A stretch of 64,000 bases of DNA, taken from assembly GCA_000004985.1 (NCBI GenBank), contig GG738896.1. One strand, written 5' to 3'. The notes below the pieces were generated by a model that did no database searches, was not told where the DNA came from, and saw only the letters and a program-made list of their open reading frames with translations. The stretch is from Naegleria gruberi. Taxonomy: Eukaryota. Positions 3,001-63,426 of the stretch are shown one piece after another. Both the position numbers and the translations under genes were made by a program. Each line of letters opens with the position of its first letter. Within the stretch, counting starts at the first letter, position 1.

Positions 3001-4013
3001 AAACAAGTGCTGATATTTTCTTGTGTAAGGATCAAGCGGATGGTTCAAAGAACTTGGAACAAGCTCCACACATTACTTGTTTTGAAGGTACATGGTGGGT
3101 AATGTTCCCATTCTCAGTAATTTACTTTATCTTGTTTGGATTGGGAGCAGCTGCATTCTTCCTCTACTCTGCTATCAGATATAGAAAAGTCAAACTTACA
3201 GAAGAACATGCTTTCATTCAGAGATTCAAATTCCTATTTGTCAAATTCAAGCCAAGATATTTCTATTATGAAAGTGTTATTACCATTAGAAAGTTGGTCT
3301 TTTCAGTTCTCTACGTCTTTTTAGCTCCACTTCAAGTAATTGCTTTAGGATTTGTTTTGATTTTCCTTTCATTTGTCATTCACTTACAATTAGTTCCATA
3401 TTCAAAGAAGATGCACAACCTCATTGAATATGTAACCCTAGTTGCCACCCTCCTGACATTATTTACTGGTTTAATTTTCTTCTACGATGTTGAATCCTTG
3501 GTCGGTTTATTGTGGATTAGAACTCTTGCGCTTGTATTGACAATAATCATTTTCGTTCTCACTGCAGCTGTTCTCGTATTGGCTGTCTTGTGGGATATCA
3601 GAACTAGAAAGAGAAAAGAAGCCAAAAAGATTAAGGAAAAATTGGAAGAAATTAAAAATTCCATCAGTAATGGAACTACAGACAAGTCTGATGATAAGGT
3701 GAAGGAAACAATTGTCTTTGGTTTGGACATTGATGAATTTGATGATGATCCAGCTGGAGATAGCTCTCTCAATAGCAAACATGAAACCATTAATGATGTC
3801 TTCTCCAATCTATTCTCCCTCGAAAGAAGAAAGAAGAAAACAGACAAGATTAAACAAAAGGGAGCCAAGATCAAGTCAAAGATTACCAACAAGACCAAAT
3901 CAACATCAGAAAAGACAAATGGTGATGATAGTTTCGATTATTCTGATCAAACTCTATCCACCAACACTACCTCTGGTGACACTAAACAAACTTCCTCACA
4001 ACTTTTCCAATAA
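1..4013 (+). CDS. Large cysteine-rich-repeat multi-pass membrane protein (furin-like/TNFR-like Cys repeats, then 7-8 TM helices, then a K/E/D-rich tail); 5' partial
   Basis: The reading frame of ORF 63..4013 stays open back to base 1 and has no signal peptide, so the gene most likely starts upstream of the window or has a 5' intron. A Cys-rich block (CKPCKIGYSKNF..CVACDRGYYASQPGSLECTKCP..CGCPSQTYYY..CVTCPKGADCP) is followed by about 8 hydrophobic helices (LAPLYLTLLIGGVAVIALIFFFF ... LVLTIIIFVLTAAVLVLAVLW) and a charged tail (KRKEAKKIKEKLEEIK). Confidence 0.55.
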   Translation, partial: SISIDLKLISNTFQNKPQSCLVKYEDGVLSIVQTCSVTYESGSVTPVVHITTPLMWYYDIVFPRIISYSFSLDGGAFYYTHANFKIKMVDDSENFIIRTIYDQNIVTFSNVPYSILSGVSLSFIKIGTNGTNLQELVFTKSCKASYCNLDYGHIIFENLRPFEYFEFDRIRINKGASSKIFAISKNLLIFNPNNTLSSIPSVSISHSKVQLGAKTSVTIILPASFSSDLSKISTVTVIFKADGSTSTPSTISKGWTSKYSFIIEMDSLPPWDLQIAAIAFQNININVIASPTITLIPSFDFSIINQYQKAKASTRSQTNLRVTFNSAITTQQGIIPSMKISNSNTNLFKSYTTNIQIDGNTRTTNAVQFTELTVTAPAASSILTVDKSLVRFPTKFSIGFAFLENQYVMKEILTYDDSIADPPIIVSVNPQEVPLIDQPVTLDIKASSIDSQSTQCIFRASKASSVNNTIIVNANFIDQYSIGCTFVPSQIVTELGISSTLEMDMTLRSNLDESKEVINIPIYRQLNIDSFTPKQGITTGEFETTFIGSFPIHPREEYFLTQGRMKFRAKFGIRESTDCSRISSTTVKCKGVSNPISEVDISLSRNSVDFVKASEKFVYYGCGPGYEQSSFNELCKPCKIGYSKNFTGGPCVACDRGYYASQPGSLECTKCPSLQTTLDTGSTSIDYCGCPSQTYYYNIYKNSCVTCPKGADCPSFNTTYPIAKTGYWHSNATGYSPYNFYECIPSTSCNAGLFGNCTDGYTGFVCGLCEDGFYRSSRSCSRCSNLAPLYLTLLIGGVAVIALIFFFFSSIKVHHISSLSIALFFFQVNSMWTKFDLNLPEEISGLFTASSASTFNFDFIQFQCVFPIGFVPQWILKMLIPVMLLILFVVLYLMGELRNIIAKFAGPKIPWKKWDITDLYNEFIKRQEIESDPKLTKMQKLKHSLTGIMFSARTAIYKSQHKIIWTLTTYLPRSEMKKFLNNCIHSFITFLSLAYMYIIQTSADIFLCKDQADGSKNLEQAPHITCFEGTWWVMFPFSVIYFILFGLGAAAFFLYSAIRYRKVKLTEEHAFIQRFKFLFVKFKPRYFYYESVITIRKLVFSVLYVFLAPLQVIALGFVLIFLSFVIHLQLVPYSKKMHNLIEYVTLVATLLTLFTGLIFFYDVESLVGLLWIRTLALVLTIIIFVLTAAVLVLAVLWDIRTRKRKEAKKIKEKLEEIKNSISNGTTDKSDDKVKETIVFGLDIDEFDDDPAGDSSLNSKHETINDVFSNLFSLERRKKKTDKIKQKGAKIKSKITNKTKSTSEKTNGDDSFDYSDQTLSTNTTSGDTKQTSSQLFQ

Positions 4014-4091
4014 ATTTAATTTCTTTCTCATCAAACTCTTTTAAATCTTTTTGTAAAGTTCAAATTTAGAGAGATACAGAATTGGAGACCT

Positions 4092-5693
4092 ATGAACTTT
4101 GAAAAAAAAATGTTTGACTTGTTTCGCTCCAAAAAGAAGGATGAACATGAAGAGAAATCCCTCTCCTTTCTCGTAATACCACATGGCAAGATTCATAATG
4201 ACTCATTCAAAATGTTGCCTATTGATATTGTGCTGGAAATTTTGGATTATATTTGTGGGGACGAGCAATTGATGATGAGCTTGACGAATTGTCATGATCA
4301 GGCGTTGAATAAGCAGATTCCTAGGGAGACTCCATTCAGAGAGAGGAAATGGACGCCTCCTGCATGGGATGTCAATTCCGATTTTAATGAATTAAAATTT
4401 GATGAGAAAAAGTTTTTCAAACAATACTTTGGAAAGTTCCCGAATAGAGATTCTAGTTGTCCAAGGCTGCTATTTAGAAAATTAGATTTGGGAGTGGATA
4501 GGTATTCTCCAAAAGAATTGTGTAGACTAATTCAAATTGTAAATTATGGAAATAAGCCAATTGTGATTGAGAAAACTTTAGCTCGTCAAATATTGCAGTG
4601 TATAAGAAGATTTGGACAAGTAAACGAGGATAAAGAAAAGGATATTGAAAAGAAAATGTTTAAATATTTGAGATATGTATTAAGGAATGGTCTGTGTGAG
4701 AGAGTTATTGGATTGGATATTGCTGGTATTGAAACATTTCCTTCTTTAATTAATGAGTTAGTACTAATGTGTCCGAATATAGAACATGTTAATCTTGGTT
4801 CGTATAACCAGAAGGAAAATTACCATGCAAAGCAAATTCTGATGAAAGATGTCAATGAGTCCATGATGATCTTGAAATTGTTAAAATCCTTTAGATGGAC
4901 TGGACATCATTTTGGTGAAGGTTTTATTGATGAGTTATCGAAACATACACCTCTATTGGAGAAGCTGGTTTTAAAATGTGAAACATCTGTTATATGTTGT
5001 CACGAAGCCATCCTAAATTGGAAGAATCTCAAACTAATTGTTTCAAAAATTAGTCCACATATTTATTCAAGAAATAATGGAACAGCAGAAGATCTATACA
5101 AGTTTTTCAAGAATATAAGTCAATTAGACAAGTTGGAAAAACTTGTTTTGAATGAAAACAATATTAAGGAAGGAAATATTCAATCATTACCTCATTCTCT
5201 GACATGTTTAGATTTGAGTAATACCCAGATTCCAGACAACTTTCTTCAAATTGTCGCATCCTTGCCCCAATTAAAGTCTCTGGGATTGAACTGTTATTAT
5301 GGAGGAAGGGATTCTTTGAAGCATCTCGTTGGATTGAAACACACTCTCGAAGAATTACACATAACCCAAAGTAGTAGTTGTGGAGATGAAGGTGTGATGT
5401 ATATTTCGCAAATCGAATCTCTAAAGAGACTATTTCTAATGAACCTAAGCCAAGATCAAATCAATGACACTGGAGGTTATGAGCTAGCCAAATTGAAAAA
5501 TTTGGAAATTGTTGGTCTTGAATATTGTTACATTTCACACAAAACAGTTAACAGTATTGCAGCAAGTTGTCCTAACATTAAGAAAATCCACATTGATGGA
5601 TGCCACAACATTAAGAAACACAAATTATCAAAGCAAGCCTTCTCTTTAATAGATGATGCATCTTATGCTGTTAGAATTTCAGAAGATCTATAA
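4092..5693 (+). CDS. F-box-like / leucine-rich repeat (RNI-type) protein
   Basis: True ATG at 4092. N-terminal F-box-like LPIDIVLEILDYI. C-terminal LRR_RI repeats (LDLSNTQIPDNFLQIVASLPQLKSLGL.., NLEIVGLEYCYISHKTVNSIAASCPNIKKIHIDGC). Confidence 0.7.
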   Translation: MNFEKKMFDLFRSKKKDEHEEKSLSFLVIPHGKIHNDSFKMLPIDIVLEILDYICGDEQLMMSLTNCHDQALNKQIPRETPFRERKWTPPAWDVNSDFNELKFDEKKFFKQYFGKFPNRDSSCPRLLFRKLDLGVDRYSPKELCRLIQIVNYGNKPIVIEKTLARQILQCIRRFGQVNEDKEKDIEKKMFKYLRYVLRNGLCERVIGLDIAGIETFPSLINELVLMCPNIEHVNLGSYNQKENYHAKQILMKDVNESMMILKLLKSFRWTGHHFGEGFIDELSKHTPLLEKLVLKCETSVICCHEAILNWKNLKLIVSKISPHIYSRNNGTAEDLYKFFKNISQLDKLEKLVLNENNIKEGNIQSLPHSLTCLDLSNTQIPDNFLQIVASLPQLKSLGLNCYYGGRDSLKHLVGLKHTLEELHITQSSSCGDEGVMYISQIESLKRLFLMNLSQDQINDTGGYELAKLKNLEIVGLEYCYISHKTVNSIAASCPNIKKIHIDGCHNIKKHKLSKQAFSLIDDASYAVRISEDL

Positions 5694-12042: not shown

Positions 12043-12428
12043 TAAAGATTTAGACTTCTAACATTAATCATGATGAATTTTGCCCAAATATTCTTGTGAG
12101 CAAAAATGACAATAGATTGGCTGTAACTGGGCAAGGATAATAATTTTCCCCTTCCTTAATATTATCATTGTAAAATTTATATCAAAACGACGTTCAGCAA
12201 AATTACATTTTCAAATTGGACAATATTCCAATTATAATAAACTCACCAAAATTGTTCTCTACAAACATTTGGCTTGCCAAGGAAAAAACCTCAAAAAAAT
12301 CCTCCCAACTCTCGACTTGGCTTTAATTATCTGTTAACTTGTGTTGTTGTGTGATCATCTAGTATATAAGCCAATCAAATAGTCTTTAATTCGGAACAAT
12401 AATAACATTGTAATATTATAATTTGAAA

Positions 12429-13864
12429 ATGATTTCATCATCAAGTAGAGGAAGTTTGAGTAGTGTTAGTAGCAATGATACTACACATCAACCATTTGTT
12501 GTGGATGAGGACTTTTTAAAGGATATTGAAAAGCATTATAGTAAATCATTGAAGAGTAAATCTTTCCAATATATTGTTGGTGTTGATGTAGGTGCAACTA
12601 ATACAAGAATTGCCATCCAATTTATTGTTAATGATGAGGATGATGAAGTATTCATGACTAAATTCCCATGTAATACTGCTACCAACTTGGCAGAACATCT
12701 TACATTTTATGGTAAAGCTTTGGTTAAAATTGTTAAACAAGGAAGTGCTGCTGGTACTATTGCTCTTGCAGGTCCAGTTACTGGAGAAAAGGTTAGAATT
12801 ACAAACTACAAGGAAAATGATCAGGAATTTTACTATTCTCAACTCACTGATACTCTCTTCCCTGCTCATAAGAATACCTTGTTGAATGATCTTGAAGCCA
12901 GTTGTTATGGTATTATTAATGTTGGCACCAATAATCGTCTCCATGAATTCTTCTGTCCATATGATAGTGCTAATAATTTTGCAACACCACAAACAGTAAG
13001 ACTTTCCGATACTAGTGAATGTGAGTAGTAGTTTAATCTCAATTATTATTGAATCATTAATTTATTCATTAGATGCTGTTTTGGCTATGGGAACTGGTTT
13101 GGGAACTGGATTGATTGTTGGAGCTTCTGGAGGTAAATTTAATGTTATTCCATTGGAAGCTGGTCACGTTCATGTTGCTACTCCTGGTACTAATTCATGT
13201 GATTTCCACGAAGATCGTGAAAGAATTGAATTCCTTAGTCAAAAGATTTATAGTGGTATTTACCCAATTGAATATGAGGATATTTGTAGTGGAAGAGGTT
13301 TGGAATATTGTTATGAATTTGAAATTAGAAATATTCCCAATGCTCAAAGAAAGAATGCTGCTCAAAGTATGTGTTTATTATTATCAATTTTTGTAATAAT
13401 TTAATTATGAATATTTTTTAAAAGTTGCTGAATCTTACTCAACTGATGTACATTCAAGAGATGCCATGATTACACACTATCGTTACTTGATGCAAGCTGC
13501 TCAAAATATTGCTATTTTGATTCCAACTTGTCGTGGTGTCTTCCTTGCTGGTGACAATCAAGTATACAATGAAGATTTCTTTAAGGAACACATTAATATC
13601 CTCCAAAAGGAACTCTTCATAACTCACCAAAAGAAAAACTGGTTGACAGACTTGAAACCATACAGACAAATGAAGGAATATAACTTTAATGTTAAGGGTT
13701 GTCTTCAAAAGGCTAAGGAACTAGCCCATCTTGATGTTACTCATGTCACTACCAATACCTCTCCAGCTAAGAACAGCTTTAAGGATGCTCTTTCTGTTGT
13801 TATACCAGCTGCCTTCTTCTCTGTACTTTCCTTCTTCACTGCTAAGAATATGTATGAAAAGTAA
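12429..13864 (+). CDS. Bacterial-type glucokinase (Glk family, EC 2.7.1.2); 3 exons (about 12429..13020, 13073..13366, 13425..13864)
   Basis: N-terminal [15 protein letters not shown] aligns with the E. coli Glk motif [38 protein letters not shown] aligns with the Glk catalytic core. Intron 1 is gtgagt..cattag and intron 2 is gtatgt..ttaaaag. Phases are consistent with ORFs 12423.., 13015.. and 13466... The assembled product is about 441 aa. Confidence 0.75.
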
Positions 13865-13866
13865 AT

Positions 13867-14373
13867 CTATTTTACACTTTTTTCTGACTCGGATTTCTCA
13901 GCTTCTTGTTCATCTATCGTCTTGATTAGTAAGGACCTATCATGTTCAAAGAGAAGCACCAAAAGCACTGTTCTTCCAAGGCAATACAGAACACCAAGCA
14001 CAAATATCACTAAAAACATAGCAAAAGCCACAAAGAAACCAGTGGATGTAGTAAAAACAAAGGAATCATCAGTCTTGATTATCTTTGCTGCCTTCTCTGT
14101 AACTCTCTGCCAAACATGAAGCACTAGGAAAACTATGGAACCAATCAGAGAAATTAATGATATAAATACAGAAAAGCCAATATGCGCAAAGAAGTTTTTC
14201 CTCTCTCTCTTGATCTTATCCAAAGTATGCTCTTCTTGAATTTCATAATCATCAACTTCCTCAATTTCCACCGGGGCTAAACTACCCTTCCTTCCTCTAT
14301 TTCCAACTTTAATTTCTATTACATCATTTGATGAGTCTTGAGAGGAACGCACCATTGAGATTTTCTTCGTCAT
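13867..14373 (-). CDS. Small two-TM membrane protein, hypothetical
   Basis: 168 aa with a real ATG. Two hydrophobic helices (FFAHIGFSVFISLISLIGSIVFLVL; GFFVAFAMFLVIFVLGVLYCL) flanked by acidic tails. Confidence 0.4.
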   Translation of the reverse strand: MTKKISMVRSSQDSSNDVIEIKVGNRGRKGSLAPVEIEEVDDYEIQEEHTLDKIKRERKNFFAHIGFSVFISLISLIGSIVFLVLHVWQRVTEKAAKIIKTDDSFVFTTSTGFFVAFAMFLVIFVLGVLYCLGRTVLLVLLFEHDRSLLIKTIDEQEAEKSESEKSVK

Positions 14374-14809: not shown

Positions 14810-16768
14810 TCAATTAACTCCTGTTGATTTAAACCCATCTTTATGGTAAAAGATTCCCATTGATTCTACAGTTTCCTTGAGAGAATGGTGACGTCCAGTA
14901 TATCCCACATAAATTTCATTCAAATTATGAAAACTTGACAGAAAGTTCAAAATCTTTGCTTCTGAATATTCGTTAAAATTGTTCGGTTCCAATTTGAGAG
15001 ATTTCAGTTTTGTTAATTTTTCCATCACCCAATACAGACCTATATGTGATATTTTATCTTCATCGATAATTATCAGGTTCCTAAGCTTTCTTCCTAGTGA
15101 GCTATTGGCTAGGAGTTTCAAATCAGAATCTATCAAACCAACTCTTTTCAAAGTGAGAGATTTCAAGTTGATTAAATTAGAGCTTTCAAAAAGATTAGAT
15201 ATTCCTGTACCTTCTTCCGAAGTAATATTATTTTCTATAACCATTTCTTCAAGAGAATTGAGATTTTCACTCAGTGAGATGATATTCAAATCTATAGGTT
15301 TCAATTTACAGTTTAAAAAAGATAGATATTTCAATGATTTAGAATTATTTCCAGAAAATAACACTTCCAATCCTTCTTTTCCCATCTGAATATCGTTCAA
15401 TTCCAAACGTTGAATGTGAACTAGAAAAGAACAATCTTTCAATTCAGAAAAGTCGATCTTTGTAGTTTCTGATTGTAAAACAAGTTTTTTCAATCTGCAA
15501 AACTTTGGGTGAGATAACAGCTTAAAGAAATCATCTTTAACATCACACGCTACGCAGTCTATAGTTTCTAAACCCCTAATTGCTGATGAAAAAGCAATTG
15601 ATTTTAAAAGGTTGGTCTCAAATCTTCCATACAGACCTCTAACGTTACTAAAATTAGAGCTCATGAGATGTTGAGAGCACTCCTCGTTCTCTGATAGGCT
15701 CCTCAAATTCAAGCACAATCTGCTCAGATTTCTAATACTATTACTCATTGAAAGAGCTTTTAACCCATCAGACTTCATAAACATGTTAAGGTAAAAGATA
15801 TTCTGAATATCTTCTAATTCTTCTAAGTATTCTGATTGACTCAACGTAAGTGCAACACTATTCAAGTTATGTGCACAGCAAAAACGTTTCAATTTCCTAA
15901 AACTGGGGCTTTCAATAAAGTGTTTGAACTCGCCAATTTCTAAACTGGTCAAGTTTTTGATATACTTTCCATTACCTAAATGTTTCAAAGCTTCAGAGGA
16001 GAATTTCCCACCATTCTCAAGCAAATTCAAATCAGTTAAATGTTGAAAATTTTCAGAGTTAGCCATCAATTTAATATCCTCATCCCCAGCAGAACCAATG
16101 TCGTCAATGATATGAAGAGTTTCTAACTTGGTAATGAATGCACTTTTACACAATGCTTCCATTCCATCCGAATTGATAACACTTCCCAGCCATATCAATT
16201 TTTTCAGATTGGAAAAGTATTTACATTTGGAAATTTCACACATTAACTGATTTGAAGTATCATCAGCAGAACCACTATATTCCAACTCTAAAGATTTCAC
16301 CTTTTCCATTTCAGGAAATTTAGTAATCTTTAAATAATTCTCATCAAATTTATCTCTTAGGACGAGTGAAATTTCTTGTACATTCTTGAATATTTTGATA
16401 AATGATTGAAGATAATTAATCGAATAGCATGTCACATCAATTTCTTTTACCTTTGAAAAACATTGACAAGTGGCAAATTTATGAACATCTTGCTTGGCAA
16501 AGAGAGAATTAATTTTCACAAATTTAATACTACTGAGGAGGGGAACATGTTCTCTCTCATAAATTTCCCTATCACTAAATATTCTTCTCAAGTTACCACT
16601 TTCTAATTCTATCGGATAGTTTATCAAAGAAATTGCCAAATCACTCACACTTCTCCACTGCTTGCAAACAAGAGAATAACTATTAACAATTTCATGAAAA
16701 TCTGCAAAATTTTGAAGCAAATAACAAAGCAAATCATTGATAATAAAAGGTGGTGAAGATGAAGCCAT
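14810..16768 (-). CDS. F-box-like / LRR (RNI-type) protein
   Basis: N-terminal DLLCYLLQNFADFHEIVNSYSLVCKQWRS is F-box-like. The body is continuous LRR_RI repeats. Single exon of 652 aa. Confidence 0.65.
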   Translation of the reverse strand: MASSSPPFIINDLLCYLLQNFADFHEIVNSYSLVCKQWRSVSDLAISLINYPIELESGNLRRIFSDREIYEREHVPLLSSIKFVKINSLFAKQDVHKFATCQCFSKVKEIDVTCYSINYLQSFIKIFKNVQEISLVLRDKFDENYLKITKFPEMEKVKSLELEYSGSADDTSNQLMCEISKCKYFSNLKKLIWLGSVINSDGMEALCKSAFITKLETLHIIDDIGSAGDEDIKLMANSENFQHLTDLNLLENGGKFSSEALKHLGNGKYIKNLTSLEIGEFKHFIESPSFRKLKRFCCAHNLNSVALTLSQSEYLEELEDIQNIFYLNMFMKSDGLKALSMSNSIRNLSRLCLNLRSLSENEECSQHLMSSNFSNVRGLYGRFETNLLKSIAFSSAIRGLETIDCVACDVKDDFFKLLSHPKFCRLKKLVLQSETTKIDFSELKDCSFLVHIQRLELNDIQMGKEGLEVLFSGNNSKSLKYLSFLNCKLKPIDLNIISLSENLNSLEEMVIENNITSEEGTGISNLFESSNLINLKSLTLKRVGLIDSDLKLLANSSLGRKLRNLIIIDEDKISHIGLYWVMEKLTKLKSLKLEPNNFNEYSEAKILNFLSSFHNLNEIYVGYTGRHHSLKETVESMGIFYHKDGFKSTGVN

Positions 16769-25836: not shown

Positions 25837-25909
25837 TATACCCTGTGGGACTCGAACCCACAACCCCCGGCTCCGTAGGCCGATGCTCTTCCAATTGAGC
25901 CAAGGGTAC
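25837..25909 (-). tRNA. tRNA-Arg (anticodon ACG)
   Basis: The reverse complement reads GTACCCT TG GCTC AATTGGAA GAGC A TCGGC CTACGGA GCCGG GGGTT GTGGG TTCGAGT CCCAC AGGGTAT A. The CTACGGA anticodon loop matches eukaryotic tRNA-Arg-ACG. The T-loop is TTCGAGT. The cloverleaf has a G1-U72 wobble. Confidence 0.8.
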
Positions 25910-63352: not shown

Positions 63353-63426
63353 GCAGCGATAGATCAGTTGGTTAGATCGTAAGCCTAACACGCTTAAGGT
63401 CGCGGGTTCAAGCCCCGCTCACTGTA
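63353..63426 (+). tRNA. tRNA-Val (anticodon AAC)
   Basis: GCAGCGA TA GATC AGTTGGTTA GATC G TAAGC CTAACAC GCTTA AGGTC GCGGG TTCAAGC CCCGC TCACTGT A. The anticodon arm GCCTAACACGC..AAGGTC is the eukaryotic tRNA-Val-AAC signature. The acceptor stem has one C-A mismatch and a G1-U72 wobble. Confidence 0.75.

Follow-up and report, generated by a model that had tools for sequence, protein, structure and literature searches.

The annotated glucokinase gene of Naegleria gruberi: introns shared with amoebozoan homologs and a probable C-terminal tail anchor

Gene structure and identity of the glucokinase locus

We analysed a 64,000-nucleotide stretch of Naegleria gruberi DNA (assembly GCA_000004985.1, contig GG738896.1; hereafter the window) and describe a glucokinase gene interrupted by two introns at positions 12429 to 13864 on its plus strand. 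Three open reading frame (ORF) pieces in different frames lie between these positions. Joining 12429-13020, 13073-13366 and 13425-13864 gives a spliced coding sequence of 1326 nt, comprising 441 codons plus a stop codon. In an exact-sequence look-up, the spliced product was identical over 441/441 residues to XP_002672587.1 (EFC39843.1; UniProt D2VTD5), named "glucokinase [Naegleria gruberi]". As the spliced protein is identical to D2VTD5, the gene model put forward in an earlier note on this DNA equals the reference annotation, with the same 441-residue sequence, the same exon-intron model and no difference between them. The locus is almost certainly the annotated nuclear glucokinase gene of N. 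gruberi, encoding an ATP:D-glucose 6-phosphotransferase of the Glk family. Being present in the reference annotation, the gene is already known and adds no novelty of its own; the N. fowleri ortholog already has a crystal structure, measured kinetics and an inhibitor series. The interpretation in the earlier note is largely upheld. That note missed that both the gene and the structure of its ortholog had been published.

Exon 1 (12429..13020, plus strand) begins at the ATG at 12429, the first ATG downstream of an in-frame stop, and extends to the first base of the Tyr198 codon, covering codons 1-197. Its N-terminus, MISSSSR, agrees with that of the N. fowleri glucokinase, and it encodes a disordered Ser-rich N-terminal segment, the phosphate-1 ATP motif and the catalytic Asn-Asp pair. 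Intron 1 (13021..13072, plus strand; 52 nt, GTGAGT...TTAG, 21% GC) is in phase 1 and splits the Tyr198 codon as T/AT. Exon 2 (13073..13366, plus strand) runs from the remainder of Tyr198 to the first base of Ile296 and contains the GTGLG phosphate-2 loop, the glucose-binding residues E226 and H229, and E266 with the SGRG sequence. Intron 2 (13367..13424, plus strand; 58 nt, GTATGT...AAAG, 12% GC), also in phase 1, splits the Ile296 codon as A/TT. Exon 3 (13425..13864, plus strand) carries the remainder of Ile296 through Lys441, followed by the TAA stop at 13862-13864, and encodes the C-terminal portion of the kinase together with the linker and hydrophobic tail that follow it.

Retention of either intron leads to an early stop. 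The ORF at 12423-13028 reads into intron 1 and terminates with ...SECE, and that at 13015-13404 reads into intron 2 and terminates with ...SIFVII. Both introns have GT...AG borders, and their removal restores a continuous frame collinear with homologs, as in U2-type introns. An end-to-end alignment with the N. fowleri glucokinase in PDB entry 6DA0 (E = 4.8e-237) has no gap at either junction (SDTSE/YAVLAMG and AQ/IAESYSTD). As the N. fowleri crystallisation construct was amplified from RNA, this alignment provides cDNA-level support for the homologous junctions. At the level of sequence, both introns are thus confirmed as real spliceosomal U2-type GT-AG introns. The two canonical phase 1 introns that had been proposed are therefore present at the claimed coordinates, and the junctions 13020/13073 and 13366/13425 are exact, since the spliced product equals the annotated protein and aligns gap-free with 6DA0.

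A further candidate for cDNA evidence, P0082 (199 amino acids; the second member of a 90% cluster), was rejected, as it is a prokaryote-style call on a genomic metagenome contig that reads into intron 1. The contig in question (L103, positions 144-743; ENA ERZ929261) is identical at the protein level to exon 1 of the N. gruberi glucokinase, and the P0082 call on it ends in the same ...SECE. P0082 is the representative of its protein cluster, which may be why the N. gruberi protein went unlisted in our homology search.

Family membership, fold and predicted activity

The protein matched the Pfam family PF02685 (Glucokinase) over residues 53-338 with 96.3 bits against a gathering score of 22.1 (E = 2.3e-27), and this was the only Pfam family matching at E <= 0.1. 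Neither of the hexokinase profiles (PF00349 and PF03727) matched at that threshold, and no hexokinase was found among the top 50 structural matches when the AlphaFold2 model was compared by Foldseek. Membership of the hexokinases was rejected on these two grounds. The ROK profile PF00480 likewise gave no match at E <= 0.1, and the CxCGxxGC zinc motif is missing, there being no CxC in the sequence. ROK kinases appeared in the Foldseek comparison as distant relatives sharing the actin-like ATPase fold (E ~1e-12, TM ~0.5), and with nothing beyond this distant likeness ROK membership was rejected as well. Profile search, active-site alignment and fold comparison therefore agree with the earlier view of an E. 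coli glk-like enzyme of the Glk family (PF02685) that is not a hexokinase. The accompanying description of it as unrelated to ROK holds for the profile search but is too strong, given the shared fold. Within the hexokinase/ROK/Glk superfamily, the protein belongs to 'group A'.

Matches in the PDB were, in order, 6DA0 (full length), Acanthamoeba 8DTC, Balamuthia 6VZZ, and the glucokinases of T. cruzi, Leishmania and E. coli. The AlphaFold2 model has a pLDDT of 87.9, and Foldseek superposed it with target-normalised TM-scores of 0.95 (6DA0), 0.86-0.87 (amoebozoan Glks) and 0.83 (E. coli 1SZ2). The predicted structure thus has the two-domain actin-like ATPase fold of the solved Glk structures.

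The N-terminal phosphate-1 motif, with which Glk and actin-like ATPases bind ATP, reads DVGATNTR here (D53-R60; 12585..12608, plus strand). It aligns with D9-R16 of E. coli Glk, and its D, G, T, N and R are kept in 42-45 of 46 aligned sequences. The GTGLG loop corresponds to G204-G208, and the DxGxTNxR and GTGLG columns are invariant or nearly so in both of our alignments (A1 and A2). N153-D154 (12885..12890, plus strand), equivalent to the glucose-binding Asn99 and the catalytic base Asp100 of E. coli Glk, is invariant in both. Aligning the E. coli K-12 sequence (from NC_000913.3) places its N99, D100, E157, H160 and E187 opposite N153, D154, E226, H229 and E266, all of them conserved. The N. 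fowleri equivalent of H229, His231, hydrogen-bonds glucose in 6DA0. By homology, ATP would be bound via the DVGATNTR and GTGLG loops and glucose via N153, E226, H229 and E266, with D154 acting as the catalytic base in the formation of glucose-6-phosphate.

The closest characterised enzyme is NfGlck of N. fowleri (AmoebaDB NF0035880, PDB 6DA0; Milanes et al. 2019), which is ~81% identical over the full length and falls in the same length class; the two also have in common the active-site residues, a Ser-rich N-terminus and a hydrophobic tail at the C-terminus. NfGlck comes from another species, N. gruberi being non-pathogenic, and the linker (residues 400-415) shows no conservation between the two. 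NfGlck has been characterised biochemically and structurally, whereas the N. gruberi glucokinase is known here from its sequence and model. The glucose-specific N. fowleri enzyme, already a drug target, is most active on glucose (Km 42.5 uM; 141.6 uM for ATP), and from this 81%-identical enzyme we infer the same activity for the N. gruberi protein. N. gruberi has been reported to be without hexokinase and to rely on this glucokinase (PMC7729029), reported as the sole glucose-phosphorylating enzyme encoded in Naegleria.

More distant relatives differ further from the Naegleria enzymes. The amoebozoan Glks (A. castellanii 8DTC, B. mandrillaris 6VZZ and the 'Glucokinase 1' of P. schiedti) have the same fold and fall in the same clade with 30-37% identity, but they lack the C-terminal hydrophobic tail and their genes have more introns (seven in Pelomyxa); one Pelomyxa paralog has an N-terminal hydrophobic segment in place of the tail. 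The kinetoplastid Glks (T. cruzi 2Q2R and L. braziliensis 6EDI), the closest solved homologs outside amoebae, share family and topology but are ~24-27% identical, have Ser at the position of the glucose-contacting His, and are targeted to glycosomes by a C-terminal peroxisomal targeting signal (PTS1) in place of a hydrophobic tail. E. coli Glk (P0A6V8, PDB 1Q18/1SZ2) has the same fold, the ATP motif and identical glucose-binding and catalytic residues. It is, however, ~21-22% identical, 321 amino acids long and intronless, without the N-terminal extension, the extra C-terminal helices or the tail. The stramenopile GKIII-type glucokinases (PMC8879444) are also protist Glk-family enzymes with a C-terminal transmembrane segment, but they belong to another branch of the family and have introns elsewhere (Ser2 and Asp68).

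The Glk family is missing from humans, a fact already driving drug discovery. The relevance of this enzyme as a drug target, raised earlier for pathogenic amoebae, is genuine, and work on N. fowleri, Acanthamoeba and Balamuthia has already taken it up.

Both introns recur at the same positions in other eukaryotes

We reconstructed the exon structures of related genes exactly from annotated products and genomic loci. The Willaertia magna gene (L001) has two introns, in the same alignment columns and phases as those of Naegleria. A eukaryote from a metagenome (L003, positions 3001-4296; JGI metagenome 3300037860), whose protein is 37% identical, has introns of 33 nt and 32 nt at both Naegleria positions. 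Two paralogs of the amoebozoan Pelomyxa schiedti (L002, 3001-4523, and L007, 2001-3748) have seven introns each, of which introns 4 and 6 match the two Naegleria introns in column and phase. An Acanthamoeba-like intron-rich locus (L099/L096; L099 1330-2560) has intron 1 in common with Naegleria, and its intron near position 2 is displaced seven codons downstream. This locus and Pelomyxa have two further positions in common, before VE[IV]TN (phase 0) and after GDNQ (phase 0). Three other loci (L004, L005 and L008) have no intron at either Naegleria site. The metagenomic eukaryote L003 also has an N-terminal hydrophobic segment and, as in Willaertia, an RCC1/WD40 gene upstream; the gene call deposited for it (P0036) is truncated at intron 2.

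By our own estimate, the chance of both introns coinciding with two of the seven in Pelomyxa is ~3e-5 if introns fall at random over ~1,100 nt, and ~4e-3 if there are ~100 eligible sites. Since four other eukaryotic loci have introns at the same positions and in the same phases, far above chance, the two introns are judged genuine. Both are probably older than the split between Naegleria and Willaertia. In the simplest reading, the gene ancestral to the heterolobosean and amoebozoan copies carried both of them, and the intron-poor Naegleria retained two. The introns common to Amoebozoa and Naegleria suggest an intron-rich ancestral eukaryotic Glk gene. Intron sharing between Heterolobosea and Amoebozoa provides a simple, alignment-independent argument that this "bacterial-type" glucokinase is old in eukaryotes and not the product of a recent transfer.

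Sequence relatives and phylogeny

A database search yielded 80 relatives. Those at 31-67% identity are labelled as eukaryotic or are transcript-like (Willaertia, Pelomyxa and EukProt transcriptomes), and bacterial-type proteins occur at 24-29% identity only. A scan of bacterial genomes, whose sample is biased by the peptide pattern used, found the nearest full-length bacterial matches in metagenome-assembled genomes of Atribacterota and Cloacimonadota at 28-30% identity, followed by Rhodobacteraceae. These Atribacterota and Cloacimonadota proteins (L009-L013) align to residues 43-395, including the C-terminal helices, and proteobacterial Glks mostly to ~338. They could be informative outgroups or donor candidates. 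A metagenome scan gave 13 relatives. Most were bacterial Glk or contigs of transcript length without introns, and only L096 and L099 were informative.

A neighbour-joining tree was built from Kimura distances over 324 columns with 100 bootstraps. It contains a Spirochaetaceae ORF that was wrongly extracted (105 amino acids) and whose placement is to be ignored. The N. gruberi glucokinase groups with those of N. fowleri and Willaertia (bootstrap 100), and this group lies within a eukaryote-only clade that includes Pelomyxa (bootstrap 100). A kinetoplastid-like group whose members bear PTS1 adjoins the eukaryote-only clade, and the sampled bacteria are placed elsewhere. Among these bacteria, the best of which are no more than 30% identical, the tree resolved no donor. 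For the stramenopile branch of the family, too, published work could trace no bacterial donor (PMC8879444). The comparison with bacterial, kinetoplastid and heterolobosean Glks that had been suggested as a check recovered a eukaryote-only Glk clade without a bacterial donor; the deep nodes of this neighbour-joining tree are not to be relied on.

A hydrophobic helix at the C-terminus

The last 25 residues of the protein, encoded at 13787..13861 (plus strand), consist of a hydrophobic helix (A417-A435) followed by KNMYEK and probably form a tail-anchor transmembrane segment. Residues 417-435 are the most hydrophobic 19-residue window of the protein (Kyte-Doolittle mean 2.02, Eisenberg <H> 0.71, hydrophobic moment 0.15), with six residues after them and a hydrophilic, Ser-rich N-terminus at the other end. 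The protein therefore contains one transmembrane-length segment within ~30 residues of its C-terminus and no N-terminal signal sequence, as tail-anchored proteins do. The tail is near-identical in N. fowleri and Willaertia (...SFFTAKN[ML]YEK), while the preceding linker is not conserved. Of the 80 relatives, P0008 has a similar tail, which is absent from the other 77. In the AlphaFold2 model, a disordered linker at 401-412 (pLDDT below 50) precedes a helix at 414-440 (pLDDT 60-74). Nothing from Gly401 to the C-terminus is modelled in 6DA0, and the structure paper is silent on these residues. Our reading of the literature on Naegleria glucokinase found no mention of the tail, of a membrane-bound or tail-anchored form, or of localisation, and the accession numbers likewise led to no paper.

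Both sequence and model point to this conserved hydrophobic helix behind a flexible linker as a probable tail anchor. Through it, the enzyme would be attached to the cytosolic side of an organelle membrane or of the endoplasmic reticulum (ER). Being moderately hydrophobic and ending in a short, weakly basic stretch, the helix would suit either the ER or the outer membrane of the mitochondrion. Membrane tethering in vivo would bear on the organisation of Naegleria glycolysis, on construct design and on inhibitor assays that use full-length recombinant protein.

Relatives have other targeting features. Members of the kinetoplastid-like group (P0067-P0074), along with P0005, P0009 and P0025, end in -SKL or -AKL (PTS1). 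N-terminal hydrophobic segments are found in the Pelomyxa protein P0028 and in L003, P0033 and P0046, and a C-terminal transmembrane domain has been reported as conserved in stramenopile glucokinases (PMC8879444). The subcellular placement of glucokinase thus seems, from these predicted signals, to have been rewired repeatedly in protists.

Origin of the gene and alternative explanations

These results strongly support a gene long resident in eukaryotes, with its age and origin inferred from introns and tree. The residence claimed for it in the nuclear genome is borne out by the introns common to Willaertia and Pelomyxa and by a tail-to-tail neighbour that is syntenic with Willaertia. The companion claim, that the gene is probably derived by horizontal gene transfer (HGT), lacks support: the gene falls in a eukaryote-only clade with bootstrap 100, the best bacterial proteins reach no more than 30% identity, and the tree resolves no donor. 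An origin by HGT is possible only as a very ancient event. A lineage-specific transfer from a bacterium into Naegleria or the heterolobosean lineage, with both introns gained later, would account for the fact that the family is overwhelmingly bacterial while animals, fungi and plants use hexokinases (PMC1665464, PMC8879444), and the Atribacterota and Cloacimonadota Glk-like proteins do align almost full-length at 28-30% identity. Such a lineage-specific import is nevertheless improbable, because the introns are common to two eukaryotic supergroups. It would have to place both introns independently at the same codon and phase as in Pelomyxa, and intron 1 also as in the Acanthamoeba-like locus. 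Intron 1 splits a Tyr codon (T/AY) in every case, and the exon flanks (..T/AY and ..A/TY) are not MAG/R proto-splice sites. Together with the nesting of the gene in the eukaryote-only clade, apart from all sampled bacteria, and with the stramenopile analysis that traced no bacterial donor either, this leaves a bacterial transfer into the Naegleria lineage very unlikely.

The bacterial affinity of the family is also the only point in favour of the locus being a bacterial contaminant or a decaying pseudogene in which chance GT..AG pairs pass for introns. To this explanation we give virtually no probability. Exon GC content (34-37%) agrees with that of the window (~33-34%), the genes on either side are N. 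gruberi genes, the introns are very AT-rich with consensus donors, and neither the reading frame nor the active site is disrupted; aligned with the RNA-derived N. fowleri ortholog, the spliced product shows no gap. The clean splice model, the 6DA0 alignment, the shared introns and the identity with the annotated protein refute it. A different question is whether this Glk-fold kinase is no true glucokinase and has some other physiological substrate, for instance an amino sugar or a hexose other than glucose. The assignment of the N. gruberi protein rests on homology, its score falls under the NCBIfam glk equivalog cut-offs, and T. cruzi Glk and NfGlck handle glucosamine differently. Yet every glucose-contacting residue is conserved, the 81%-identical N. 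fowleri enzyme is most active with glucose and has glucose bound in its crystal, and the enzyme is reported to be the only one phosphorylating glucose in Naegleria. Another substrate is therefore considered extremely unlikely.

Several observations weigh against parts of the interpretation of a long-resident, membrane-tethered glucokinase. The protein scores 68.4 bits with TIGR00749, against a trusted cut-off of 225.45, and far under the cut-offs of all PRK00292 models (NCBIfam); on this profile evidence, it belongs to a divergent eukaryotic subgroup of the Glk family and is not a close copy of a bacterial Glk or an equivalog. Bootstrap values at the deep nodes of the tree are 7-47, too low to settle the ultimate origin of the gene. 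Membrane anchoring is based solely on hydropathy, conservation and a helix predicted with moderate confidence (pLDDT 60-74), and the full-length N. fowleri enzyme has been purified from E. coli as an active recombinant protein.

A more specific scenario joins both lines of evidence. The gene would descend from an intron-bearing ancestor of the heterolobosean and amoebozoan copies, either of the age of the last eukaryotic common ancestor or spread by an ancient eukaryote-to-eukaryote transfer, and not from a lineage-specific import. In addition, a tail anchor would fix the vahlkampfiid enzyme to the membrane of an organelle, possibly the outer membrane of the mitochondrion, making it a functional counterpart of mitochondria-bound hexokinase, with relatives placed elsewhere via PTS1 or N-terminal anchors. 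We offer this combination tentatively and give it less than even credence.

Neighbouring genes in the window

The window is AT-rich (~33-34% GC throughout), and long ORFs are densely packed on both strands. A convergent ORF (13867..14373, minus strand; 168 amino acids with two hydrophobic helices), which is context and not part of the enzyme, ends so close to the glucokinase gene that only 2 nt separate the two stop codons; the 3' untranslated regions must therefore overlap the opposite gene. This ORF is homologous (tblastn, 1.3e-12) to the gene that lies tail to tail with the Willaertia glucokinase (L001 5541-5951). As the homolog occupies the same place in Willaertia, glucokinase and convergent ORF form a conserved gene pair. 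The exact 168-residue sequence was not in the protein collection, and the reference annotation may have a different model for this gene. The next ORF, at 14813-16768 (minus strand), corresponds to N. gruberi NAEGRDRAFT_72262 and shares a 331,721-bp contig with the glucokinase, which identifies the window as nuclear DNA of N. gruberi. Two tRNA genes, tRNA-Arg(ACG) at 25837-25909 (minus strand) and tRNA-Val(AAC) at 63353-63426 (plus strand), lie among the protein-coding genes.

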